A stretch of 40,000 nt of DNA, taken from assembly GCA_023268615.1 (NCBI GenBank), contig JALQUC010000026.1, positions 1 through 40,000 on the forward strand, read 5' to 3'. The notes below the pieces were generated by a model, which saw only the letters and a program-made list of their open reading frames with translations, made no database searches and was not told the origin of the DNA. The translations under genes were made by a program, and so were the position numbers. Shown piece by piece: positions 3,829-19,313 of the stretch. The DNA comes from Candidatus Altimarinota bacterium (GTDB lineage Bacteria; Patescibacteriota; Gracilibacteria; BD1-5; JAGOOR01). The first letter of the stretch is position 1. Every line of letters starts with the position of its first letter.

Positions 3829-4647
3829 CTAAACGAGCTTCTTAGTGGACGATGTGATGGTCCAGACATGGTCACTCGGAGAAACTGTTATCATACTCAT
3901 CATAAGTGGAACAATATAGCCATATTTGAGAGTCCTCAAAACACCTCAACTCTGCAGTACCCTATCAATCCATATTTCCAACTCAGCTCACATGCCCATA
4001 TCTACTAACTGTTTCATTCATTTGAGGATTCTGATTTGTGTTATGATGTAATCTCTGAGATCTGGTTTTACTGCATAAAAAAATGCATCCGTAATGACAT
4101 CAACATCTGGGTAAGCAAGGAGCGATAGAAATAAATCTTCATTGATAATATTATTTGGCATTTTTCAGTAACTATGTTTCTCGAGTAATTCTAAAATTGT
4201 TTTCTGTATGCAGTAGAGTCATCCTGAGGGTGTGCAAAGCTTGCATGGTCGAATTCTATTGCGACTTGGTACAGGAAATATCGACCCACCTACTATATTA
4301 TTTGTAGATGCTCGTGTATGCTGCACTAAGGTGGACAGCGTTTTAGGTCCACCAAAACTAATATCCCCGTCACAAAAAACCATCACATCCTCAAATGTTC
4401 CATCAGAAACCGCTGTCTGGACTATGGTATTCCAAGCGTTTGCTTTTCAGGGTGATGAGGTAAGTGGAATTACTTGTCTGCATTGCTGGGAAATTTCATA
4501 CACGATTTCTCCTGTTCTATCACTCGAACCATTGACGCAAACATAGATATTTTCTGGAGGGTTCTCCTGCTCGAGAACTGATATGATAAGTGGCTCAATA
4601 GTTGCTTCTTCGTTTCTGACAGGGATTCAAAGTGAATATGGTTTCAT
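3829..4647 (-). CDS. family 2 glycosyltransferase
   Basis: MKPYSL-G-IPVRNEEATIEPLI...VCVNGSSDRT...VFCDGDISF (GT-A fold with DxD). Several in-frame TGA. TAG stop at 3829-3831. Confidence 0.7.
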
Positions 4648-4713: not shown

Positions 4714-5499
4714 ATGTACTCCTCTCCTCGCATCATATCCGCGCCCATTTCCAACAATCGTCTCAACTGGGATGAGCGAGAGAATCACACTATCATAGTA
4801 CCGAGTCTCATAGAGTGAGCTCTGGATGATGTCATCATAGGAACAGAAACAGTGATAGAGTGAGAGGTACATGGGAAGATAACAGCAGGCAAATGATTGA
4901 AGCATTTTGTTTTCCTGAGAAGTTCGCGTGTCCCCACATGGATCATTGATAATCACAATCACGCCTTCGCATTCTGGCACGAAGCATATTGGAAATGATA
5001 TATCCAGAAGTGAGCTCTCCTCGTGCATATCGATCAACACACTGATCTCGCCACACCGGGCAATTTCCCTGCCTGGAAACACCCTGAAGAAAGTCATGAA
5101 GGTATCGTCGAAGAATACACAAATACGGATCTGACTATCGCAGACTTCATCGTCCCCGCTCTCGCAACGGGCCTCATCTCTGAAGCGGTCATGGTGACGG
5201 GTGAAGATATGCACACCTCACGAAGCTTCGTTTGGGAAGATAAAAAAGAAGAAATAAAAAAGAAGAAAGACGGATTCTCTATAAATTCCCCCTCCACTTC
5301 TACGCCTACTTCTCTCATCCTGGATATTGATCTCGATTATTTCTCACAGGGATTCGACGAATTGAAATGCTTCGAAAATGTTCGATACTGGATAGAAAAA
5401 GCAGATATCATCACGATAGCGACAAGCCCTCTCTTTATCGACCAAGAGAAAGCTATTAGCGTGCTAAAAAGCTTGCAAAAGTCACTCGTGACTCTATAA
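4714..5499 (+). CDS. UPF0489-like (arginase/deacetylase-fold-like) protein
   Basis: Extending track ORF 5023..5499 upstream through four TGA gives ATG 4714. Motifs WIIDNHNHAFAFW, LVHIDQHTDL, LDIDLDYF. TAA stop. Confidence 0.6.
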
Positions 5500-5534
5500 T
5501 CGCCTCACCGTTACGGAGAAGTAAATCCTTTGTG

Positions 5535-5559
5535 TTTTCTGTTACTTTTTACTTTTTCT
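5535..5559 (+). repeat. pyrimidine-rich motif TTTTCTGTTACTTTTTACTTTTTCT (copy 1)
   Basis: Near-identical to 38126-38150. Lies 20-45 nt upstream of tRNA-Cys. Confidence 0.8.
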
Positions 5560-7594
5560 ATTCGCTTTCAGCGAATCTGGCGCCTTGGTAGAACGGTCAT
5601 ACAGGAGCCTGCAAAGCTCTGGAAGCCGGTTCGACTCCGGCAGGTGCCTCCAATACTGCATTTTCTCCAAAAAGTACCTGTCTCACAGGTCATAAAAGCT
5701 CTATTTCAAGGGCTTTTTTCTTTTTAATTTTGAGTTCGAAAGTCGTCAGCATGATCAATTCATAAATATCTTCTCTCAAAATTCTATTTTCACCATTTGT
5801 AAGCAATTTTTCAGAGAGTTCGAAAGTTTTTCTGAGGATATTGGGTATTCTCTCTAGAAATATCTGAGAATCTTTTTGATTCATCAAGTTCTCAATTTTG
5901 TTATTTATTTCTGCAATTCTCTTTTTTCCTTCTTCTATTTGTTCTTTTATAACATCTTCCATTCCTTCAATACTTCCTGATTTAAGAAAATTGGTCATCA
6001 TTAGTTTACTCTGTTCTTCTATTTTGTGCTTCTGAGATTCCAAGTCTTTTAGTAAAGCTTCCTGCCCTTTTCGAACATCTTGAGTGCTTGTCATAAAAAT
6101 TTTTGTAATGTTCTCCTGCAGAAGACCAATCATGCTGACAAAATTTCTTCAAATCCATCACACCAATGTGTACCAATCGCTAATTTGTTTCTCTAAATCA
6201 TCATCATTACTGCACTTGGCACCTAAAAATAATACTCATTTTTCTTTTACGGGATCTAATCATTCAAAATCTAAAGTAGATCATTCAAAGAGTCTTTCTA
6301 GAATTCATGAAATATCGTCAGGATTTTTTATATCTATTTTTAATTCATTTTTCTCAAAAGGTAGTCTAAACGCCACTTCAATTCCTGAAGATGTAGCATG
6401 ATTAAAAAGAAGTTTTTCAATTGCTAATATAAATTTAGAGCCTTTCAACCCCCGATCTGCAAAAAGCTCATTTACTTTAATTCAGATAATTTTTTTAACT
6501 ATTGCACCTCTTAAGAAACTCATAAATTCTTCAATAAGCCATTTCTCAGAGACATGAATCCCCTCTACTGTATTCTTATATTGGGATGTTCATTTTTGTG
6601 TATATCATGACAGTCTTCGACCATTCTCGGTCCGTAGAACACTTCTTAAGTGATATTTTTCCTGTTGGAGACCGTAGCTACCTTTTTTCTTACCCTTATT
6701 ATTCTGTACTCACTGCCAAAGAGCCATAGGAATTGGTGTTTCACACTCAAAAAATTGGAGATTTGAAAAAGATATTCATGTATTTTTTTCTGTATATTCA
6801 CCAATATAAACCTTGTTACTAAAAAGCCGATCATTCAATTCTCGTTCTCATAGTTTTATACCCCCAACCTCCTGTAAGTACTTTGATATTTCTTTGTGTG
6901 TGATCCCCACCATCTTCATCTCAAAAGCTTTAATGATAAAAGGCATTTTATTGTTTTGTTTTAGGATTCTTCTACCTTCATGAATAATATGCCCAAGACC
7001 TTTTGGTGCTGCATACGGAAATTCTCAATTTTCAAGCTTTAAAAGAATTCATCCGATTGATTTTCTCCTAGTATCTAAACTATCATAGTATCCGGCAGAA
7101 AATTTCTTATGTACTTCTTCCTTGTCTGTCTCTTTTGTAATCTCTTCTGTCCCCTCCATGTTAATATAAATGATCTTTTCGATAGTTTGTCTTTGCTTAT
7201 TGTCTCAATAAAGCATATTCATTATGGTCTGTGTATCTGTTGGATTCCTTGAGAGACGGGAAAGATCTCTTGTAAGCAAAATACAGGGGCTTTTTTCTTT
7301 ATTTATTTCTTCTATCATCTTTGTCCATTCTTTTCGTTTTTTATTCTCAAATCCACTAAAAGTCTCACCAAAGACCCTGACTTTCTCTTTTTCAAATTTT
7401 AAGCGTTTTACTATACTGCCTATTCCATCTTCTTGTTGTATAAGGGATTCGCGTTGTTCCTCTTTGTTAGTACTTCTTCTGAGATAAGCAAAAATAGAGG
7501 TATCCTTTGATAAGCTCTTATTCTGTTGGCCGCCATGGGAAGGAGGTCCTTGATATACAATAACTTTATTAAATATACTTTGTGACGATTGCAT
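5558..7594 (-). CDS. large serine recombinase (integrase/transposase type)
   Basis: One continuous frame (checked codon by codon) from ATG 7594. It has the catalytic region IFAYLRRSTNKEEQ, LLTRDLSRLSRN, a recombinase domain (GYYDSLDTRRKSIGGILLKLENGEFPYAAPKGLG) and a Lys/Glu-rich coiled-coil C-terminus. About 20 in-frame TGA. After TGA 5690-5692 the frame runs antisense through tRNA-Cys to TAG 5558-5560. Confidence 0.85.
5579..5652 (+). tRNA. tRNA-Cys (anticodon GCA)
   Basis: Cloverleaf by hand: acceptor GGCGCCT/AGGTGCC, anticodon stem GGAGC/GCTCT with loop CTGCAAA, T-arm GCCGG-TTCGACT-CCGGC, discriminator T, encoded CCA. Close to the E. coli tRNA-Cys layout. Confidence 0.9.
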
Positions 7595-7595
7595 A

Positions 7596-7673
7596 GTGGC
7601 GATTATTATTTAGTGGTAAATTATTCTCAACTCTTCCCCCGCTTCCAATCGCCACGAAAGAAAGGGGGAGAAG
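7596..7673 (-). promoter_or_regulatory. 5' leader hairpin abutting the recombinase start codon
   Basis: In mRNA sense: CTTCTCCCCC...GTGGCGATT-(42 nt)-AATCGCCAC-T-ATG. The 9-bp stem ends 1 nt before the ATG. An upstream C-tract can alternatively pair with the loop segment GGGGGAAGAG. Confidence 0.4.
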
Positions 7674-7770
7674 AATAGAGGATAAAATATCAACTTCTTC
7701 CATTCAACAATTCCAAAGTAATAAATTAGCTTTTATATTCAAGTTTTATTTTGTACAAGCGGTTTTTGGT

Positions 7771-7798
7771 GTTTGTGTTTTCTTAAGAAAACACAAAC
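7771..7798. repeat. perfect 28-bp palindrome GTTTGTGTTTTC-TTAA-GAAAACACAAAC
   Basis: Self-complementary over all 28 nt. Sits between the nuclease gene end (7970) and the recombinase start (7594). Confidence 0.9.
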
Positions 7799-7969
7799 TA
7801 TCCAAAACTATATAAAAGTAGTCTTTAGATGTATTGTGTACCAGTCCTGAAGATAAAATTAAAACACTCACTAATCCAATTCTAAAAAGGGAATAGTGGT
7901 CTTTAGAAAATCTTTTATATTTTAGTCTCTGCCCCACTTTCTGTTCAAAAATTTCTATTTGTCCAGCAT

Positions 7970-9190
7970 TTAATTACAAATTGATTCACAAGGTATGCCA
8001 TCTGAATCAGAATCGAGCCGAGTAAGACCGCAAGAGTTAAGATAGTATTTTGCCTCTTCGCAGGTTATCATTTGTGTGCAATAAGTCTTGGCTCCGCAAG
8101 TGTAGGAAGATGAGGGAGGAGGTGTAGTAGGAGGCGTATAGATTGGGGTTGTTATAGGTGTGCTGATTTTTACTTCATCTTTGGTCCCTTTTTTCCTGTC
8201 GCCTGCACATGTCGAAGCAGACCAAAGTCCGAGTTGAGCGTTTTTAGCCATCAGCTCTGCCTCTTTATTCTCTTTCTGATAGGTGTACGCGGTGTTATAG
8301 GTGTATTCGAAGGCGTAACCATCCAAAATCATTTTCGTATTGATATTGGTCCCGTTATAGAAGATATAGGCGAGTGTACGGCCATATTTGTCTGTTTCTC
8401 CTTGGGTTGAATCCTTCTCAATAGTGAGTTCCTTTGCATCTTTTAAGAGCATTTTTAAGTGTTCTGATGCTTCTTTGCCGAAACATTCTACATAACCATA
8501 ACGGGATGTTGTAGATTCAGGTGCATCTAAGCCGATCATTCGTATTTTGAGGTTGCCATAATTGACTGTGTCACCATCAACAACAGTAATGAGATTAGTA
8601 CCGCTCAACGAAACAATTTGTCGAGCAAAACCAAACACTTCTGCACGAGTGGCAAAACGATTTGGAAAGAATTTGTAGTAAGTATCAGAAATATACTGAA
8701 CTCACGGTATTTCAATATCAGAATTACGAATTTTTACAAAAAGGTCCTTTTGCCACTCAGTCACATCTTTATCAGCTGGAACAAGAGCATCATATTCCTT
8801 TGTAGGTGAGAGGTTGGATGCTTTATAGAGTATAGAGAACGCTTCTGCTCGTGTGATAGAGTCTTGAGGTCGTGCTTTTGTGTTGCTTCTAGAGATAAGT
8901 TCATTATCACTTGCTAATTCTATGGCACGGCAAACCCAATCTTGTTTTACAGTATCAGAGAAGTATTTTTTGCAGTTATAGCCCTCAGGAAGACTTACGC
9001 CTTTGATTTTAAGGGCTATTCCTATGACTTCTGCCCGTGTAATCCTATCATCTAATCTATACCCTGTTTCTGATGACTGTAATGTTATGATGCCTTTTTC
9101 TCCAAGAAAGACTGCATTTGATAAATCTGAACTAGTGTAGGCAATACCTAAAAAGGGAATCAACAGGGTCAAAAAGAACACTTTTTTCAT
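7970..9190 (-). CDS. secreted SLH-repeat / staphylococcal-nuclease (SNase) / Excalibur-domain nuclease
   Basis: Track ORFs 8702..9190 and 7970..8638 share a frame across TGA 8702-8704. Signal peptide MKKVFFLTLLIPFLGIAYT. Three SLH-like repeats (ITRAEVIGIA, ITRAEAFSIL, ATRAEVFGFA). SNase core VVDGDTV..IRMIGLDAPE..GRTLAYI. Pro/Thr linker, then a C-terminal DSDSDGIPCE motif. Confidence 0.8.
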
Positions 9191-9222
9191 AATAGAAAAA
9201 TAATGATAAACCTTTTGCTTTT

Positions 9223-9251
9223 AAAAAAAAGCACGCTCGGAAAGTGCGTGC
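9223..9251 (-). terminator. rho-independent terminator (minus strand)
   Basis: Minus-strand read: GCACGC-actttccga-GCGTGC followed by T8. Confidence 0.7.
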
Positions 9252-9260
9252 CAAAATATA

Positions 9261-9427
9261 TTTAGTGTTTTGCTGGCGAAACAAAAAGGGAGGATCAATC
9301 CCCTTCGATTCGCCAGAATCTTACTCATTTAGTGTCATAGACAATAAAAGAGGCAGGGATATAATCCCCCCTTTCGATTGTCTATAAATAACACTAAAAA
9401 AGTAAGTAAAATAAATAAGATTCTGGC
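9261..9427 (-). ncRNA. candidate structured RNA: two related hairpin units nested in longer inverted repeats
   Basis: Unit 1: CTGGCGAA(9273-9280)/TTCGCCAG(9309-9316). Unit 2: ATAGACAAT(9337-9345)/ATTGTCTAT(9377-9385). The stems differ but the loops are similar (..AAAAG.GG.AGGGAT..AATCCCC..TTCGA). Outer pairs are TTTAGTGT/ACACTAAA and GCCAGAATCTTA/TAAGATTCTGGC. Strand inferred from the adjacent minus-strand terminator. Confidence 0.4.
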
Positions 9428-9500
9428 TACAATAGCTTATTCAAAAAACTACTTTTACAAGGAAGTCGAATAATCTAATGAATTGTCTTGGACAGAGTAA

Positions 9501-9968
9501 CTACTTCATAACCTTCAATAAAGAGGAAAATGGTGTGAAATTCTTAGGAATACTCTGCAAATCTGGGAAAAAGCGATGATATGTTGCGGGGTTGTTTAGT
9601 CTCGTTTTTCATAGTTTTTTAGCCAACTGGCTCTTTATTGAGACATGTTTAGGTTTCTCTCCGAGAAATTTAAGAAAGTCGGATTCAAAATTCGGAGAAT
9701 TAGAAATGACTATGATTCATTTCGCTTTGGCCAATTTCAAAGCAGCAGTGGTTTCAGGTCTATCTGAATCAATCCAAACATAAATTTCATCATATCATTC
9801 ACCATTTACTATGGCTTTTCGAACAATTTCCAATGGAGATCAGCCATATCAGTTTTTAATATAAATCTTCTTACCACATCATCTTCAACAAAGTGACCTA
9901 AAATGCTTAGCACATTCGCACTCATCATCTCATTCACAATAAAGAAGTGTGGTTGTGTTTTTCCCCAT
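9501..9968 (-). CDS. RloB-like TOPRIM-type protein
   Basis: MGKNTTTLLYCEGDDECECAKHF...YDEIYVWIDSDRPETTAALKLAKAKGIIVISNSPNFESDFLKFLG matches the RloB pattern (CEGxxxE, YDEvw.v.D.D, SNPcFE). Eight in-frame TGA. Starts 6 nt after the ATPase stop. TAG stop at 9501-9503. Confidence 0.8.
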
Positions 9969-9973
9969 AAATA

Positions 9974-11152
9974 CTAATCAAAAACAGGTTTAGCACCATA
10001 TACCCCTGCCATATATTTTGCATAGTAATTATCATCAGATCTGACAGTAACCCCCTCGATCTGATCTAATCTATCTAGTGACGAAACTCAATTTTTATCT
10101 TTTTCAACAAAGAAGATTTGATATTTATTCAATCGGTTAAGTACTCTTGGATTTTGTGTAGTAAAAATAAGTTGAGCATTATCAGGATTATTTTTTTTAC
10201 TTTGATAGTAGTCCATGATTTTATCAACAAATTCAGGATGAAAATTTGAATCCAACTCATCAAAGACCAGAACACCTCATTTTTTGAGTGTTTCAGCCAT
10301 CATATAGGCATAATCAATCAGCTTAAGACTTCCATCTGAATAATAAGGTACAATGTGTGTTTTCCCATCAATATGTACCTCTCCCTTTGCCTCCATTTGT
10401 TTCTCGCCATTAGGACTAATAGATTCTTCAACTTTCAAATGTAAACCAGTTGGATCAAATTGATGCAAAATATCATTCAAGAAATCTAAATCTTCCTTAT
10501 TTTGAACATATCTAGTTAATGCAGTTACTCTATTCATATCAAAACTCGACTGATTTAGGCCACCCATTGGCAAGATCCGGGTATAAACAGTCGCCCAAAA
10601 ATCAATAATATCTAGTGCATTCACATCCATCAACCTACTTTTCACAAACAAAATACTCGCATTTGATCGTAAAAATGGTAATTCGCTCGAGGTCAAATCG
10701 GATAGACTAAAGAGTTTTTTCCAGGTTACTCTTTCTTCAGTTTTTGATCGAATAAAAATCGCTTCTGAGACTGCAAATCATTTTTTCAGCTTTAATTCGA
10801 TTTTATAGACAGACTTTTTTGTCTCAAAAACACATTCAAAATGCTGATCTGCATTATCTGCAAATGTGTATGGTATACATCTGTACTTTATTGAACTATC
10901 AGATACTGGGGTTTCTGGTGCTAATCTCCATGCATCAACTATCCAATACTGTAAAAATGCAATGCCCCGTAGTAAATTTGATTTCCCTGAGGCATTTGGG
11001 CCTATTATTGTTGCAACTTTGGAAACCTTTACATTAGGAAGCTTCGAATTAGCGAGTGTGTCATCGCTATTATCCTTTCTGGCCCAAGTAAGATCAAAGT
11101 TATTATCCTTTTTGAAAGAGGCTATGTTGGAAAATTTGAATGAGTGTATCAT
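9974..11152 (-). CDS. AAA_21/ABC-type ATPase (abortive-infection-type)
   Basis: Walker A IIGPNASGKSNLL, signature-like YYSDGSLKL, Walker B GVLVFDELDSNFHPEF, then LIFTTQNP and a C-terminal YGAKP. Track fragments 10778..11152 and 10277..10696 join through TGA. TAG stop at 9974-9976. Confidence 0.85.
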
Positions 11153-11532
11153 GTTTATATTTATAGAAGTGCTGTCATCTTATTCATTTTTCTCTATGTG
11201 TCAATAATAAAGCAATATATTATTACTTTTGTAGATTTTCTGTGAAAATACGACATGTAGGTGTATATTTAATATACTCCATTCGAAAAATTGTTTTGCA
11301 AAAAAAATTCTTCATATATAATAACTGTACTACTTCCTAACAAAGCTCCTATGTGCTTCTGATGAAAATAAAAAACTCTAGGTCAAACAAATCGTTTAGA
11401 TCTGCTATTCCAAGAGTTTTCGAGTAACAAAAACCGGACAGGCTTTGTTACCAACAAATATATTAGTTTTAGGAAGAATAGCAAATTATTATACAACACT
11501 CTTCGTGTTGTCTACTTCCTAACCCTTCTCGT

Positions 11533-11637
11533 ATGGCATACCGCTATCGTGATTCTGGGTCTGGTCAATTCATCAGCAAACCATCTGCTGATCGTAGGAA
11601 CCCAGATACCGTTGAACGCGAACGAATAAAGAAATAA
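11533..11637 (+). CDS. small conserved-looking peptide (34 aa)
   Basis: MAYRYRDSGSGQFISKPSADRRNPDTVERERIKK. TAA stop, followed about 20 nt later by a strong terminator. The pattern YR-x3-SG-x-F-x-S...P-x-T-V recalls a widespread family of small uncharacterised proteins (from memory, not searched). Confidence 0.5.
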   Translation: MAYRYRDSGSGQFISKPSADRRNPDTVERERIKK

Positions 11638-11659
11638 TCTCTTCTGAAATTTCTTTTTC

Positions 11660-11690
11660 ACCGACAGTACTCTTGCTGTCGGTTTTTATT
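11660..11690 (+). terminator. rho-independent terminator
   Basis: ACCGACAG-tactcttg-CTGTCGGT followed by TTTTTATTT. Confidence 0.75.
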
Positions 11691-11957
11691 TACTTTCTGC
11701 TCAACTCGAAACCTCTCTTGGAGATATACCTAACCCTGTTGTGCCTATAGTGAAAGGGAAACATCGGGGACACGGCTGAATATGATGTTAACCAAAAACA
11801 TTTTTCTGCCTCTCTTTGAAAATCCTCTTCTGCCTTGAAATAAATACTTTTTCACTATTCTCTACATAAGTTCGAAGATTGGTACCCCTTAAGACCTCCA
11901 TTTGACAATTATTATAAAACACTATATTGCTAGTGTTTTATTTTAAAAATTAGATTT

Positions 11958-12683
11958 ATGAATTTTCCTGAAGATATAAGCCTAAAATCAAAATCTATTG
12001 TTCGAAAAGTTGACGGAAAACCTGTAACAATAGAAGTAAAAATACATCCAAGTACTCACAGAAAAGTGGTTGTAATAAATTATCCTGGGGTTTATGGAGA
12101 TATAGATGGCTTTAACAGTAAATACACCAAAATTGCTGGTCTAGTTGCTGAAAAGATAGGAACAACTCTTCGTATCTCGTGAGCAGAAGAAACACTCTGA
12201 GAAGAATTTGAGAGCGGTGTATCTAAAAAACTTGAAGCTGTGATTAAGGATGCTCTGCAAAATTCACAAGAACTAGCTGAATGCGAACCCAATGAACTAG
12301 AAATATATTTGATGGGGTTTTCAACCTGAGCATCTTGAGTTGCTGCTGTTTGTGGTAAATACCCCCAAATTAAAAAAATACTTCTTATTGCACCATCTTG
12401 AGATGCTTGAGAAGAAGCATGTGAAAGTTCTTTGGGCTCTTTTACTTGAGAAGTGCATGTTTTAGTTGGCGAAAATGATGAAGTAGTTGGATGAAAAGCA
12501 GCTCATATTTTTGCTCAAATGGCTAAGTCAGCAAAAAGAGTGAAAGAACTGACAATTCCCAATTGTGACCATCAATTCAGATGAAGCAAGAATGGTCAAC
12601 TGATGAGCGCTGCACCAATATGGGCTTTTTTGAAGAATGGCGAAGGAGAATTAGATCCCAATGATGGTATTATAATCTACTAG
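11958..12683 (+). CDS. alpha/beta-fold hydrolase
   Basis: Frame open 11958-12683 through nine TGA. Nucleophile elbow G-F-S-T-(TGA)-A with TGA 12327-12329 at the second Gly of GxSxG. Later ..NCDHQF (His). TAG stop. Confidence 0.7.
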
Positions 12684-12857
12684 ATCATCTCTCATCCAAA
12701 AAAATCGCTTAAGCTGAGAAATTTTTATCTGTTTTTCCACTATTAATGAATATTCCTCGAATTCAACGGAATTTAAAAAATGCCATCTTAAAATCTTTTG
12801 TATTGCAATAAATACCTTTTCGCTATGCTCTCCTTGTATCATTAAATTAAAAGAATT

Positions 12858-13334
12858 ATGCCCAATCCTACCGTCACACTCCACACCAATCATGGTGATA
12901 TCACGCTCGAGGTCTTCGCGGACAAAGTCCCAAAGACAGCAAAAAATTTCGTAGAGCTCGCAAAGAAGGGCTACTACGATGGGACAATATTTCACCGCGT
13001 TATTCAGGACTTCATGATCCAGGGTGGTGATCCTACTGGCACAGGTCGTGGTGGTGAGAGTATCTATGGTGAAAAATTTGAAGATGAATTTCATCCTGAA
13101 CTGTCACACAAAAAAGGCTATATCTCTATGGCAAATGCTGGACCAAATACCAATGGGAGTCAGTTTTTCATCGTCCACGCTGAGGAAACAACTTGGCTCG
13201 ATGGCAAGCATAGCGTCTTCTGACAGGTCGTCACAGGCATGGAAGTCATCGAAACAATAGCGACAGTCCCGACTGATAGTGGTGATAAACCGTTTAAAAA
13301 AGTAGAGATTACCCGGACAACAATTGTTGAATAA
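12858..13334 (+). CDS. ppiB: cyclophilin-type peptidyl-prolyl cis-trans isomerase
   Basis: [49 protein letters not shown]-(TGA 13221-13223)-QVV where cyclophilins have ..VFG.V. TAA stop at 13332-13334. Confidence 0.9.
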
Positions 13335-15356: not shown

Positions 15357-18300
15357 ATGTCTCTTACTTCACCATCTTCTGCAACCGAAACTCTGTGAGA
15401 ACGAGCCAAACTCCGTGAAGTATACATCCAGAAAAAGTGAAGGCATGATCATGTATCACATGGTCTCACAAAAATCATCCAAGAAGAACTCCAGATCTCA
15501 TGAGTCATAGCAGAGGTGTATGATAAATATTATGTGCAGGGTAATGAAGAAAATGGTCTCAGTGATGCGGAGTATGAACTGGCAAGAAAAACAATTTTCG
15601 CCGAGTTACCACTCGAAAACACCTACGAAAAGAATGATTTTTATGGAAGGGTCTGAGATGTAGAAATGATTGACATTGCTGATGTAGCAGGACAGTTTAG
15701 TGCACGGACTGACTCTGTCGAGAAGAGTCTCCTCGCTCAGACCGGGAGAGATTTCACCGGGAAAGCGAAGAGTAATCATGTGATTGTCCTCAGAGGAGAT
15801 GTGACACCTGCAGTGAGACAAAAAATTCATGACTGGATGATCAATCCTGTCGAAAAAGTCGAACAAAAGAGAGATGATATACTCTTTCCTGATCCAGAGA
15901 AGAGTCCAGAGAATTATCGAATATTGGATCGATGTGCCGCAGAATTGGACGACAAAGGTAATCCAACACGATACGAAGAATTCAACAAGCTCTCTCAAGA
16001 TGAGTACAGAGTTTTTGCGAAACACGGTGGCATCTCTCTCGAGGTCGATGATTTTCTCGAGGTCCAGAAATACTTCAGAGGAGAATGACGCAATCCGACA
16101 TTTACCGAACTCAAACTCATCGAGACCTACTGGTCCGATCACTGTCGACATACGACATTTCATACGGCTATCAAGTCTGTAGCTATTGAGGGAAACTCCC
16201 CGGCAATAGTAAAAGATATCAAACAGACAGAAAGACTCTTCGAAAAGACCCTGGGAGATCAAGAAAAAACTCTGATGAATCTGGCACAGGCAGGTTTGAA
16301 AAAAATAAAAAAAGATGCAAAATTGTGAAAGAAAAGAAAAGAATACGAATCTCTCGAAAACAATGCGTGCTCCTATGAAACAGAAATAGAAAATGAAAAA
16401 GGCGAAAAGGAAACATGGGTCATCATGTTCAAAAATGAGACTCACAATAGTCCCACAGAGACCGAACCATTCGGATGAGCAGCTACCTGTATCGGAGGAT
16501 GTATCCGTGATCCACTGAGCTGATGAACATACACTTTTCAAGCGATGCGCATTTCCGGTTCTGGCAATCCAACAGAACCTATCAGTGAGACCATGGCCGG
16601 TAAACTCTCACAGAAATTTATATCCCTCGTGAGTGCTCTGGGATATTCGAGTTATGGGAATCAGATAGGTCTTGCAACGGGTATGGTGCGTGAATTTTTC
16701 CATCCTGGATACAGAGCAAAGCATCTTGAACTCGGCTATGTCGTCGCCGCTGCACCCAAGTGACACAATAAGCGATCAAAACCAAAAAAGGGCAATATAG
16801 TTCTGATGATTGGTGGGAGAACCGGCCGTGACGGAGAAGGAGGAGCGACAGTATCATCCAATCTGCAAGGTGCACATCATAATAAAAAACAGATGTGAGC
16901 TCATGTGCAGAAATGAAATGCCCCAGAAGAAAGAAAACTCCAACGACTCCTCTTGAATCCAGGGTTTGCTGGGAAAATCATCAAATGTAATGATTTTGGA
17001 GCTGGTGGTGTGTCAGTTGCTGTAGGAGAACTTTCCCGAGGTCTCGATATCGATCTTGATAGAGTAAAAACAAAATATAGTGGCCTCAGCGATACCAGTC
17101 TCGCACACTCTGAATCCCAAGAACGCATGGCAGTCGTCATAAACCCCGATGACTATGAAGAAGCTATGAAGATGATCGAAGCAGAGAATCTCGAAGCAGA
17201 GCAGGTAGCGCGGATTACTGATGAAGAAGAGCCTCAGACAGACCGCCTCAAAATGAACTGGAAAGGTAATACTGTAGTCGATATTTCTCGTGATCTCCTC
17301 GACAGTATGGGTGCGAAAAAAAATCAAGAAAGAGCACTTATCACGGGGAATAAGACCGATTTTTTCAAAACACCAGGAGCATGGCACAAAGAAGACACTT
17401 CTGATAGACTGCTGAGTCATCTCAGACATCTCTGAGTCGCTAGTCAGAAACGACTGGGTTCTCTCTTTGATTCCTCTGTTGGTGCCAGCACTATACTCGC
17501 TCCATATGGAGGAAAATACCAGAATTCCCCGCAGATCGGTATGGCTGCCAAAATTCCTTCTCTGCACAATAATGATGGTCTCGATTTCAAGACAGCAATT
17601 ATCTCAGCATTTGGCGGACATCCACGCCTCTCGGATTCGAATCCATATCTCGCTGGTATGTATGCCGTTATTGATGCGATTTCTCGAACGGTAGCAATGG
17701 GCTGAGATGTGAATCGTGTCTGGCTCACGGCACAAGAATACTTCTGAAAACTGGGCAAAGACGATACTCGTTGGGGCGAAATCTATAGTATCATGCTCGG
17801 ATTTTTCCGAGCACAGATAGAGTTAAAAACTCCTGCAATCGGAGGCAAAGATTCTGCATCAGGAACATATAAAAAAGAACATGGCACTCTGATGCATGTA
17901 CCGACTACACTTTTTTCAATAGCAAATAGTCCAGAGGATAGTGGGCGGATTGTCTCGGCTGAATTTCAGAAGAGTAATAGCCGTGTGCTCTACTTTCGTT
18001 TCCCAAAAGATATGCATGGATTACCAGACTGGGTTTCTTATCGTCGTGTCTTGCGAGATGTCCGGTGACTGCATGACGGTGGTCGTGTGCTCTCATCCAG
18101 TATCGTAGAAGAAGGAGGTGTGGCAGCATCGGTTTCTCGTATGTGTATTGGGAATCGTATATGATTTAGTTGTTATGAAGAGCTGCAATTATCTCATGAT
18201 ATAGGTGGTATTATTCTGGAGGTACCTGAGGACACCGAAATACCCTGGAGTGCCCGTGAGATAGGGAAAACAACAGATAACCAATTCATTACCCTGAAAA

Positions 18301-19313
18301 ACTGAAATCCAGTATTTCTGAATAACATAGATCAGGCACTCTCAGGCACTCTCGATACCGTCTATCCTCCGGATTCAGCTGGTGGGACTGTCGAAGAAAT
18401 CAAACCACATACTCCTCGGGGTGATCCTGATCGCAAACCAATTATTTTTGGTCCCGATGGAACTATAGTGTCTGGTGGTCCTGTAGAAAAAGTAAATATT
18501 CTGACCAAGAAACCAAAAGTTGTGATTCCTGTCTTCCCAGGGACAAACTCAGAACTCGATACCCGCCATGCTCTTCATAAATCAGGATTTACCGATGTAG
18601 AAATATTTGTCTTCAAGACAAAAACTCCAGAAGAACTGACCGCATCCTTCACACAATTTGCACAGCTGATCTGAGAAGCTCAGATGGTCGTCTTACCAGG
18701 GGGATTCTCTGGTGCAGATGAGCCAGGATGATCTGCAAAGTTTGCCAATACTATTCTTCGAAGTCCTAAAGTGCGTGACGCTATGAATGCATTTCTGCAG
18801 AAAGCGGGCACTCTCACTCTGGGTATCTGCAATGGATTTCAGATGCTCATGAAGCTCGGCGTCTTTGAAAAATGAGAAATCTCCGACTTCCAAACTGAGA
18901 CAGATATGACTCTCGCACACAATACCAATGGTCGACATATGACCGATCTGGTGGGACTCAGAGTGACCTCTGTTCTCTCTCCATTTTTCAATACTATTGA
19001 TATTGGAGACACCTTTGTCGTTCCTATTTCTCACGGAGAATGACGAGTGACTTTCAATAATAAGAAACAATTCATGGACCTCCTCGCCAAGTGACAAATT
19101 ATCCTCCAGTATCTCGACGCAGATGGAAGTCCAACCAATGCGTACAACGGTTCAGAGCATGGTGTCGCTGGTATCTGCTCACCTGATGGTCGAATACTGG
19201 GACTCATGCCACACCCTGAGCGATCAGGTCTGAATGTCTTCAAGAATGTCCCGGGCAATAAATATTTCCCAATTTTTGATGGAGCCGCAGAAGCATTTGG
19301 TATAAAAAAGTAA
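15357..19313 (+). CDS. purL: phosphoribosylformylglycinamidine synthase, single-chain large form (PurS-like + PurL + PurQ domains)
   Basis: Six track ORFs all lie in the frame of ATG 15357. TYWSDHCRHTTF, NETHNSPTETEPFG-(TGA 16476-16478)-AATCIGGCIRD, GRDGEGGAT, C-terminal GATase LPGGFSGADE..LGICNGFQ..MPHPER. 1318 codons. TAA stop. Confidence 0.9.

Follow-up and report, generated by a model that had tools for sequence, protein, structure and literature searches.

The put RNA of HK022 is a cis-acting antiterminator that acts alone on RNA polymerase (PMC9378689), and the cis-acting antiterminator canT of Tn916 is paired with an insulating terminator (PMC11658703). Like EAR of B. subtilis and conAn2 of pLS20, they are promoter-proximal, consist of stem-loops, and lie upstream of terminators in a mobile-element or operon context. 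In these systems, only transcripts from the element's own promoter reach the downstream genes. Here, we analyse an RNA gene of ~205 nt in a 40-kb stretch of DNA from a Candidatus Altimarinota bacterium (contig JALQUC010000026.1, positions 1 to 40,000; hereafter the window), where it lies on the minus strand between an RloB gene and a gene for a secreted nuclease. The RNA shares the placement and context of these elements, which fit a processive antiterminator RNA of the put/EAR/canT type; antitermination itself is our proposal. In contrast, it matches none of them in sequence or structure. Put is ~70 nt long with two hairpins, ~340-450 nt are needed for canT, and the conserved two-register switch of the present RNA is no known feature of any of them. 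Rfam presumably includes an EAR model, and no EAR match was returned for this RNA.

Candidate-phyla bacteria such as Gracilibacteria are uncultured, have genomes of ~1 Mb, read TGA as glycine, and largely lack Shine-Dalgarno sequences. To our knowledge, regulatory RNA has hardly been described in Gracilibacteria or in candidate-phyla bacteria at large. At the sequence level, comparison of its copies establishes the conservation, strand, helices, and alternative pairings of the RNA, its predicted promoter and terminator signals, the co-oriented promoter-less cargo behind it, and a mosaic breakpoint. The RNA family is new, and so is its architecture, in which a two-state fold with a duplicated strand stands at the head of a cargo slot in bacteria with genetic code 25. 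In kind, the RNA can be grouped either with RNAs that act as leaders, attenuators, or antiterminators, or with RNA genes that anchor islands.

The RNA gene and its copies

The RNA gene runs on the minus strand from 9427 to ~9223, position 1 being the first letter of the window. It is preceded by a putative sigma-70-type promoter (9434-9460, minus strand), with TTGTAA at 9460-9455, a 15-nt spacer, TAAGCT at 9439-9434, and 6 nt to the +1 G at 9427. At the other end, GCACGC (9251-9246) is complementary to GCGUGC (9236-9231) across a loop of nine nucleotides, and eight uridines follow (9230-9223). This G+C-rich stem-loop with its U-tract (9251-9223, minus strand) has the features of an intrinsic (Rho-independent) terminator, with a calculated energy of ~-8.6 kcal/mol, and the predicted 3' end of the RNA is at ~9223-9226. 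The minimum free energy of the 286-nt intergenic region is -89.5 kcal/mol for the minus strand, compared with -54.3±4.6 kcal/mol for shuffles (z -7.7), and -79.3 kcal/mol for the plus strand (z -5.8), indicating that the region is not a chance fold.

A sequence-only reading of this DNA had described two hairpin units between the RloB and nuclease genes. The stem of unit 1 is formed by CTGGCGAA (9273-9280) and TTCGCCAG (9309-9316), and that of unit 2 by ATAGACAAT (9337-9345) and ATTGTCTAT (9377-9385). Unit 2 is wrapped by a further stem, TTTAGTGT (9328-9335) with ACACTAAA (9391-9398). A 12-bp pair, GCCAGAATCTTA (9312-9323) with TAAGATTCTGGC (9416-9427), shares positions with the unit-1 stem. 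That reading had placed each of these stems, like the 12-bp pair and the minus-strand terminator, correctly to within 1 nt (the unit-2 stem is shifted by 1 nt), and its minus-strand structured RNA of ~200 nt ending at the 9251-9223 terminator is supported as a prediction. The same reading had taken the units for a family of hairpins covarying with each other. Instead, a single RNA gene contains both as domains, and the meaningful covariation is between orthologues.

From 5' to 3', the RNA begins with the invariant segment a, GCCAGAA, which with its extension (9410-9427) makes up the 5' strand of helix P1. An alternative 5' strand, ACUUACUUUUUUAGUGU, follows at 9390-9408. P2/P3, the unit 2 of the earlier description (9337-9385), folds as an extended irregular hairpin, at whose apex AGGGNGGAU-YRU-AUYC is conserved. 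The 3' strand common to P1 and its alternative, P1-alt, lies at 9312-9329 and ends in segment b, UUCUGGC, which overlaps the 5' arm of unit 1. Unit 1 itself (9273-9316; CUGGCGAA ... UUCGCCAG) contains an inner GGGG/CUCC hairpin followed by a U5GU3 tract, and its 3' arm is segment c. Segment d, AUUUUGGC (9250-9257), is able to pair with a or with c and shares 2-3 nt with the start of the terminator stem.

Units 1 and 2 form a 66-nt tandem repeat, each starting with ATTTAGTGT (at 9261 and 9327), a box confined to the lineage of the window. The hairpin search and the covariance model find no further hairpin of the unit-1/2 type in the 40 kb. The shorter box ATTTAGTG(T/G), at 9261-9269 and 9327-9335 before units 1 and 2 with the same 66-nt spacing, recurs inverted past unit 2 (9391-9399) and in the loop of U3 (7609-7617), a hairpin before the recombinase gene that is described below. 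In the RNA, it is part of the alternative 5' and 3' strands; it is found in the window, L068, and clade 3, and clade 2 has another sequence at its place. The plus strand of unit 2 carries a near-consensus sigma-70 promoter, TAGACA-16-TATAAT (11/12; 9338-9365), antisense to the RNA and directed toward RloB. It is probably fortuitous: the unit-2 stem differs between copies, and therefore the promoter is not kept in the others.

There are at least 14 distinct copies of the RNA in about four clades, all on Gracilibacteria-type contigs that read TGA as Gly. The copies in L003, L004, and L067 are reached through homologues of the nuclease and that in L068 via a homologue of the recombinase; a search of genome contigs with the recombinase protein of the window had given no match. 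A conserved 18-mer of unit 1 leads to seven further complete copies in Gracilibacteria/'Peribacteria' genomes and a 21-mer to three in metagenome contigs, and in the copies found by these two patterns the next gene downstream is not the nuclease. Among the matches listed, 45 of the 52 genome matches to the 18-mer lack the 5' arm and are due to chance. The two conserved DNA patterns have no match in viral contigs, and a covariance-model match of 21.5 bits in L070 is a converging terminator hairpin rather than a homologue. The RNA occurs once per locus or genome, as judged from a single stretch with the 18-mer in each of seven genomes and a single covariance-model match per locus. It is absent from the relatives L006 and L062-66, which have a nuclease orthologue.

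Similarity among the copies starts exactly at the invariant GCCAGAA. A predicted -35/-10 pair stands 6 nt ahead of the +1 G in 14/14 copies, and a terminator follows the RNA in all. The promoters have the pattern TTGATA or TTGCCA, 15-16 nt, TAnnnT, 6 nt, G, with scores of 7-10 out of 12; the weakest version, TTGTAA-15-TAAGCT, is common to the window and L068. For the ten copies whose terminator was located automatically, an RNA of 194-211 nt is predicted (205 nt in the window). In each lineage, an intrinsic terminator follows the conserved AUUUUGGY. These terminators belong to five unrelated sequence types at the same position; those of the other lineages have hairpins of ~-8 to -12 kcal/mol plus U-tracts, and those of L004 and L060 are weak. 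Unit 1 is the most conserved block of the family; of its last 22 nt, two vary, and these in L067 alone. In particular, AUCCUCCCUUUUUGUUUCGCCAG is unchanged in L068 and in the 11 copies of alignment A2, has two substitutions in L067, and has G for the first A in the window. Segment d is kept in 13 of the 14 copies, with one substitution in L067, despite a preceding linker of 10-30 nt.

The sequence-only reading could not match the element to any RNA class, and neither could we. At the gathering threshold, Rfam 15 yields no family for the RNA, and two tRNAs are its only matches in the 40-kb window. Permissive scans (E<=10) of 7400-9700, 9200-9440, and L011 4200-4440 return sub-threshold chance matches only, among them miRNA precursors and rpsL_ricks, the latter with 29.5 bits where 60 are required; 6S RNA, signal recognition particle (SRP) RNA, transfer-messenger RNA (tmRNA), and RNase P RNA give no signal. 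No earlier description of this RNA is found in a literature search.

Covariation and alternative folds

The consensus structure obtained with RNAalifold from 13 sequences (alignment A3) comprises P1 (5' GCCAGAAYC... with ...GRUUCUGGC), a large internal loop on the 5' side, P2/P3, a short hairpin inside unit 1, and the c:d hairpin. Standard pairs account for 97% of the cells on this structure. Double-sided changes occur at 13 pairs, compared with 5.5±1.4 in column shuffles (none of 500 reaches 13) and 1-4 in slid controls with the partners moved by 1-3 columns. Five of the changed pairs are in P1 (A3 columns 1-18 with 103-120) and seven in P2/P3. The compensatory sets of P1 are AAUCUUA/UAAGAUU, AACCAUA/UAUGGUU, and AACUACA/UGUAGUU. 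The outer stem of unit 2 reads ATAGACAAT in the window, CTAAACGA in L003, CCATAAGC in clade 3, and TCAACGA in L067 (as RNA, AUAGACAAU, CUAAACGA, CCAUAAGC, and UCAACGA), with a matching 3' arm each time. Unit 1 has a single compensatory change, from C-G to U-A in L067. Both conservation and real covariation are present in the homologous loci, as the sequence-only reading had expected of a functional RNA. The largest internal loop (A3 columns 19-41) differs between clades and is strongly asymmetric, with ~20 nt facing 5 nt.

The helices contain 109 G·U cells and 3 A·C cells, and on the complement strand pairing would drop from 97% to 82% of cells. This asymmetry and the lower pairing of the complement indicate that selection acts on the minus-strand RNA, not on a DNA cruciform.

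Four short segments are able to pair in two schemes: a (GCCAGAA), b (UUCUGGC, which runs into the 5' arm of unit 1), c (GCCAG, in the 3' arm of unit 1), and d (UUUUGGY, which abuts the terminator). Either a pairs with b and c with d, or b pairs with c and a with d, and all of these pairings are possible in every copy. We applied constrained folding to seven full-length copies with a strong terminator. Fold A (a:b) leaves the terminator complete. In all seven, fold B (a:d together with b:c, the latter being the unit-1 stem in full) is more stable than fold A by 0.3-5 kcal/mol, and its a:d pairing takes 2-3 bp from the terminator, shortening the stem from 6-9 to 4-6 bp. Column 8 covaries with its P1 partner in fold A, column 113, and not with its a:d partner. 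Since a, b, and c are invariant and d is nearly so, covariation is silent on b:c and a:d.

The 5' strand of P1 is duplicated. The second strand (positions 20-38) is unpaired in fold A and pairs in fold B with the same 3' strand, forming P1-alt. In five divergent copies, the P1-alt duplex has -11 to -20 kcal/mol, compared with -4 to -6.6 kcal/mol for shuffles (p<=0.0015); these statistics come from per-sequence folding, not from an alignment test, as the variable loop aligns poorly. Compensatory changes in P1-alt parallel those in P1, with CUUAC, CAUAU, and UUGCAC opposite GUAAG, GUAUG, and GUGUAG. The predicted P1 and P1-alt are mutually exclusive and evolutionarily conserved pairings, each with compensatory changes. 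In accordance, the proposal of switch-like, mutually exclusive folds, originally drawn from the overlap of the 12-bp pair with unit 1, is supported and now extends to P1 and P1-alt.

Neighbouring genes, cargo exchange, and recombinases

In the window, the RNA lies downstream of a complete AbiL-type system. It consists of an AbiLi ATPase (9974-11152, minus strand; PADLOC AbiLi 4.9e-61) and a short RloB/AbiLii (9501-9968, minus strand), which has eight in-frame TGA codons and gives weak matches (25.4 bits to Pfam RloB against a cutoff of 31.5 bits; PADLOC AbiLii, E 0.0038). The link of the RNA with this pair, suggested in the sequence-only reading, does not hold, as AbiL is upstream in the window only and in none of the 13 other copies. 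Their upstream neighbours are DUF4411 and M78 (L003), SMODS (L004), Shedu and GmrSD_N-HNH (L060), HATPase_c_3 (L067), an OLD ATPase-TOPRIM protein (L027), an SNF2-like helicase identified by eye (L011), a UvrD-like helicase (L068), Fic/Bro-N (L008), and LexA (L012, L016, L018, and L059). The upstream position is thus occupied by at least eight different defence systems, or by LexA. The finding of AbiL in the window and of these other systems at the same position indicates a defence-gene hotspot. Where the RNA adjoins LexA, it is ~97% identical between copies and the LexA proteins are 62% identical. The lexA-like gene (LexA_DNA_bind and Peptidase_S24) is divergent from the RNA and ~110 bp apart in part of clade 3 (L012, L016, L018, and L059/L061), and there the RNA promoter might be under SOS control. 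A general linkage with LexA is rejected, with lexA upstream in that part of clade 3 only and none in the window.

Downstream of the RNA in the window is the gene of a secreted nuclease (7970-9190, minus strand) with a signal peptide, SLH, SNase, and Excalibur domains (Pfam), and one in-frame TGA. Its ATG is ~32 nt past the U-tract. Nuclease orthologues in L003, L004, L060, and L067 (65-96% identity) likewise follow the RNA; those at 96%, 68%, and 65% identity share the ~200-nt element upstream, and the genes upstream of it differ (DUF4411/M78, HATPase_c_3, and SMODS). A place just before the nuclease gene, as described in the sequence-only reading, is not the general context, as 9 of the 14 copies have a different next gene. 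The ATG is 0 nt from the U-tract for type III Mod/Res, 4 nt for GmrSD, ~20 nt for a membrane protein of 126 amino acids, and 14 nt for one of 68 amino acids. Altogether, the downstream gene is adjacent and co-oriented in 5/5 junction types and starts 0-37 nt past the U-tract. An ATG 0-4 nt after the U-tract, as in clade 3, leaves no room for a promoter, and those genes therefore depend on transcription through the RNA. In L004 and L060, where the terminator is weak, the RNA is effectively the 5' untranslated region of the nuclease. In L067, an open reading frame (ORF) of ~50 codons (~4008-4165; MEVTDYKMVTALSGWGLQ...) stands after the conserved nuclease 5' region and ATG, and the real nuclease start is beyond it; this putative small gene is captured between the leader and the nuclease. 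In the window, a perfect palindrome of 14+14 bp (7771-7798; GTTTGTGTTTTCTT/AAGAAAACACAAAC) lies 170 nt past the nuclease stop, and no U-tract follows it on the gene strand.

The window copy is a mosaic. Its 5' part (promoter region, 5' arm, P2, and unit 1) resembles L068 and clade 3 with 73-100% identity (89-100% for L068 and L008), and its tail, terminator, and nuclease resemble L003 with 90-94% identity. The breakpoint is directly 3' of the near-invariant unit 1, so that the 5' two-thirds of the RNA gene are L068/clade-3-like. In clade 3, the sequence of the tail tracks the type of cargo. Together with the breakpoint, this indicates that cargo and terminator move as one, with the exchange taking place at unit 1. 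The G+C content is 33% over ~5.7-12 kb and ~43% in the rest of the window.

Serine recombinases lie within 1-4 kb of the RNA in the window, L003, L027, L060, L067, and L068. In the window, the large serine recombinase LSR1 (5558-7594, minus strand; Pfam Resolvase) marks an island boundary, and the antisense strand of tRNA-Cys (5579-5652, plus strand) encodes its last ~30 codons. The same overlap with tRNA-Cys(GCA) (…LEAPxGVEP…ALQAP…) is kept in the window, L060, L067, L068, L070, and L071, whose recombinases are 40-46% identical (family 1). Its retention in six lineages suggests that the recombinase attachment site is inside tRNA-Cys and the 3' end of the recombinase gene itself. The gene beyond tRNA-Cys is 82% identical between the window and L068, which suggests that the recombinase-bearing segment is itself exchangeable. 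The RNA is 1-4 kb upstream of the family-1 recombinase in four of the six loci and is not found in the 10 kb covered for L070 and L071. The tRNA-Cys region is unrepeated elsewhere in the window, and a tRNA-derived repeat or att duplication is accordingly rejected.

Before the recombinase gene, the sequence-only reading had placed a third hairpin related to units 1 and 2. A hairpin is indeed present at 7596-7655 (U3, minus strand), formed by GTGGCGATT (7596-7604) and AATCGCCAC (7647-7655), but it is a separate element of the recombinase gene that the RNA covariance model does not find. U3 encloses a promoter-like TTGAGA-17-AATAAT and ends 1 nt ahead of the recombinase ATG at 7594, predicting a leaderless recombinase mRNA. 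Repeats of the same type (60-80 bp, after a CTTTC motif, with a purine-rich loop, an enclosed promoter-like site, and an end 1-4 nt before the recombinase ATG) stand upstream of recombinase homologues at ~5800-5868 in L067 and ~9925-10003 in L070. Their arms change compensatorily, to GTGGTGA/TCACCAC in L067 and TGGCGTTAG/CTAACGCCA in L070. No U3 is present upstream of the recombinases in L060, L068, and L071. The local likeness between U3 and unit 1, which have TGGCGA arms in common, is real in the window and weaker in L067. We reject the idea that U3 is a decayed copy of the RNA, since it stands on its own and its conservation goes with that of the recombinase, whose gene it may control as an operator or an autoregulatory hairpin.

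The whole window is TGA-recoded. ORFs under genetic code table 11 are short, and long ones appear only with TGA read through, such as purL (1318 amino acids, 15357-19313); tools that use table 11 fragment every gene of the window. The TGA codon of the nuclease aligns with Gly in its orthologues. The genetic code is code 25, as in Gracilibacteria/Absconditabacteria. The host genes at 5000-13000 of the window have no Shine-Dalgarno sequence, and U-rich tracts, such as TTTTTCT(A/T)T-ATG, stand ahead of their start codons. For several genes, among them the recombinase and, in relatives, possibly type III Mod, the mRNA seems to have little or no leader. Mimicry of Shine-Dalgarno and anti-Shine-Dalgarno sequences by the GGGAGGA...CCUCC strands of the RNA is rejected, as host genes lack the former and the motif is not conserved as the latter.

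Proposed function and its alternatives

We tentatively favour, at somewhat less than an even chance, a cis-acting leader that sets how much transcription from its own promoter passes the terminator into the promoter-less cargo. As the promoter-proximal leader, or expression head, the RNA would serve a slot for variable cargo within a defence or mobile island of Gracilibacteria. Transcription from its promoter would either stop at the terminator, freeing an RNA of ~200 nt, or continue into the next gene. The balance might be set by the choice between folds (a:b versus a:d and b:c), or by an effect of the nascent transcript on RNA polymerase, in the manner of put, EAR, and canT. The near-invariant unit 1 would double as the crossover point at which cargo and terminator are swapped between genomes. 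Regulated read-through, and a regulator for it, are what we infer from the arrangement. The likeness to attenuators and riboswitch platforms is in the four segments with competing pairings, the invariant switching segments, the intrinsic terminator, and the co-oriented gene. Unlike them, the RNA has no conserved ligand-type junction, leader peptide, or T-box features, and its proposed antiterminator overlaps the terminator by just 2-3 nt. A riboswitch has a conserved unpaired ligand core, and its class normally serves one metabolic pathway; no such core is present here, and the downstream genes (nuclease, type III restriction-modification, GmrSD, and membrane proteins) are unrelated.

Several points weigh against the leader. 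The promoter, the 3' end, and read-through are all predictions from DNA sequence. The loss of 2-3 bp from the terminator would make a weak antiterminator on its own, and the covariation, silent for invariant segments, gives no proof that b:c or a:d forms. The largest internal loop varies between clades, unlike the core of a ligand-binding riboswitch. The argument from orientation is based on five independent junction types (chance ~1 in 16-32), and a weak promoter-like TATCAT between the window terminator and the nuclease ATG might give the nuclease its own promoter. Finally, conservation of the RNA far above that of its neighbours is typical of trans-acting or housekeeping RNAs, and the strong unrelated terminators kept in several lineages are equally fit for a discrete, stand-alone small RNA.

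The last two points lead to the main rival, a stable trans-acting small RNA, housekeeping or island-encoded, which might, for example, bind a protein through two related GGGRGGAUU...AUCCUCC hairpins; its gene would be merely a recombination anchor and read-through incidental. We regard this as rather unlikely, though a serious contender. It would account for a predicted promoter of its own and strong non-homologous terminators in every lineage, the single copy in each of seven genomes, the ~97% identity beside LexA at 62%, the variable genes on both flanks with a breakpoint at a conserved block, and the joining of 5' and 3' ends in fold B, which is frequent in stable small RNAs. It does not account for a co-oriented downstream gene in 5/5 junction types, with the clade-3 ATG 0-4 nt after the U-tract, for the weak terminators of L004 and L060, or for the missing RNA in the nuclease-bearing relatives L006 and L062-66. 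6S, SRP, tmRNA, and RNase P RNAs, which give no signal, do not provide an identity for it either. 6S RNA is a rod whose central bubble is closed by pairing of the two RNA ends. Like 6S RNA, the present RNA measures ~200 nt, has a predicted promoter of its own, and contains an extended irregular hairpin interrupted by a large internal loop; unlike 6S RNA, it has an asymmetric and variable loop, an extra 3' domain, and a patchy occurrence among relatives, and no Rfam 6S match at E<=10. It also resembles the tRNA and tmRNA genes that anchor islands, as a short conserved RNA gene beside variable defence cargo and recombinases with breakpoints at its edge. However, it is neither a tRNA nor a tmRNA (ARAGORN), both of its flanks are variable, and the recombinase family is joined to tRNA-Cys instead.

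The recombinases within 1-4 kb in six loci raise the possibility of a DNA-level recombination site, with unit 1, a 44-bp imperfect palindrome, and U3 as att-like or cassette sites in an integron-like arrangement. The att sites of serine recombinases are imperfect inverted repeats of 40-50 bp, and an integrated element lies between hybrid attL and attR sites. Exchange of cargo and tail exactly at the 3' edge of unit 1, the TGGCGA arms of unit 1 and U3, and promoter-less cargo like that of integron cassettes are all in line with it. We nevertheless consider it improbable. The 109 G·U versus 3 A·C cells point to selection on RNA made from one of the two strands; unit 1 and U3 are each self-symmetric rather than hybrid attL/attR sites; and family-1 recombinases are always joined to tRNA-Cys, their likely target. 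In addition, U3 is absent in L060, L068, and L071, the often short flanks of the clade-3 copies contain no recombinase, and most loci are without a unit-1 repeat at the far end of the cargo. The likeness to the integron Pc/attI is one of layout: a conserved promoter-bearing module, exchangeable promoter-less genes behind it, and a site-specific recombinase gene nearby. The differences are serine recombinases in place of the IntI tyrosine recombinase, no attC, a single cargo slot, and selection on the module at the RNA level. A bolder form of the leader proposal is a gene-capture platform, in which the two-state leader RNA would be the single expression head that gates promoter-less defence cassettes, or licenses polymerase for them, with cassettes swapped together with their terminator at the 3' hairpin, possibly helped by serine recombinases. 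Such a platform would be an RNA-gated functional analogue of the integron Pc/attI, and we think it unlikely, if less so than a DNA-level site. Ordinary terminators, a dispersed repeat of the repetitive extragenic palindromic (REP) or miniature inverted-repeat transposable element (MITE) type, or a small peptide are very improbable explanations. The inner hairpin with its U-tract does look like a terminator, and an ORF through unit 1 (ATGAGTA..., MSKILANRRGLILPFCFA...), which might encode a type I toxin, is open in the window. However, the conservation of 170 nt with covariation is well beyond the needs of a terminator, and REP and MITE repeats have many copies per genome, compared with a single copy per locus and genome here and none elsewhere in the 40 kb. 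The ORF is shifted in frame by an indel in clade 2, has no hydrophobic stretch of transmembrane length, and shows no wobble-type variation, the block being invariant at all codon positions. To a covarying hairpin family belonging to the ATPase/RloB (AbiL) system, such as a regulatory or antitoxin RNA, we give the least credence of all: in the window, AbiLii/RloB is the immediate upstream neighbour of the RNA and shares its strand, but the upstream flank of the window is lineage-specific and no AbiL is beside the other 13 copies.

The RNA is a well-supported new class, conserved over several species-level genomes, with alternative pairings under selection. Its position at the slot suggests how small genomes might use a single controlled entry point both to swap defence genes and to express them. 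If the RNA does gate or antiterminate transcription, it would be a new family beside the few cis-acting antiterminator RNAs (put, EAR, conAn2, and canT), and such gating would make it a compact, portable expression switch. If it instead acts in trans, it would add a conserved small RNA to those known, with a gene that is the anchor of a hotspot for defence islands.

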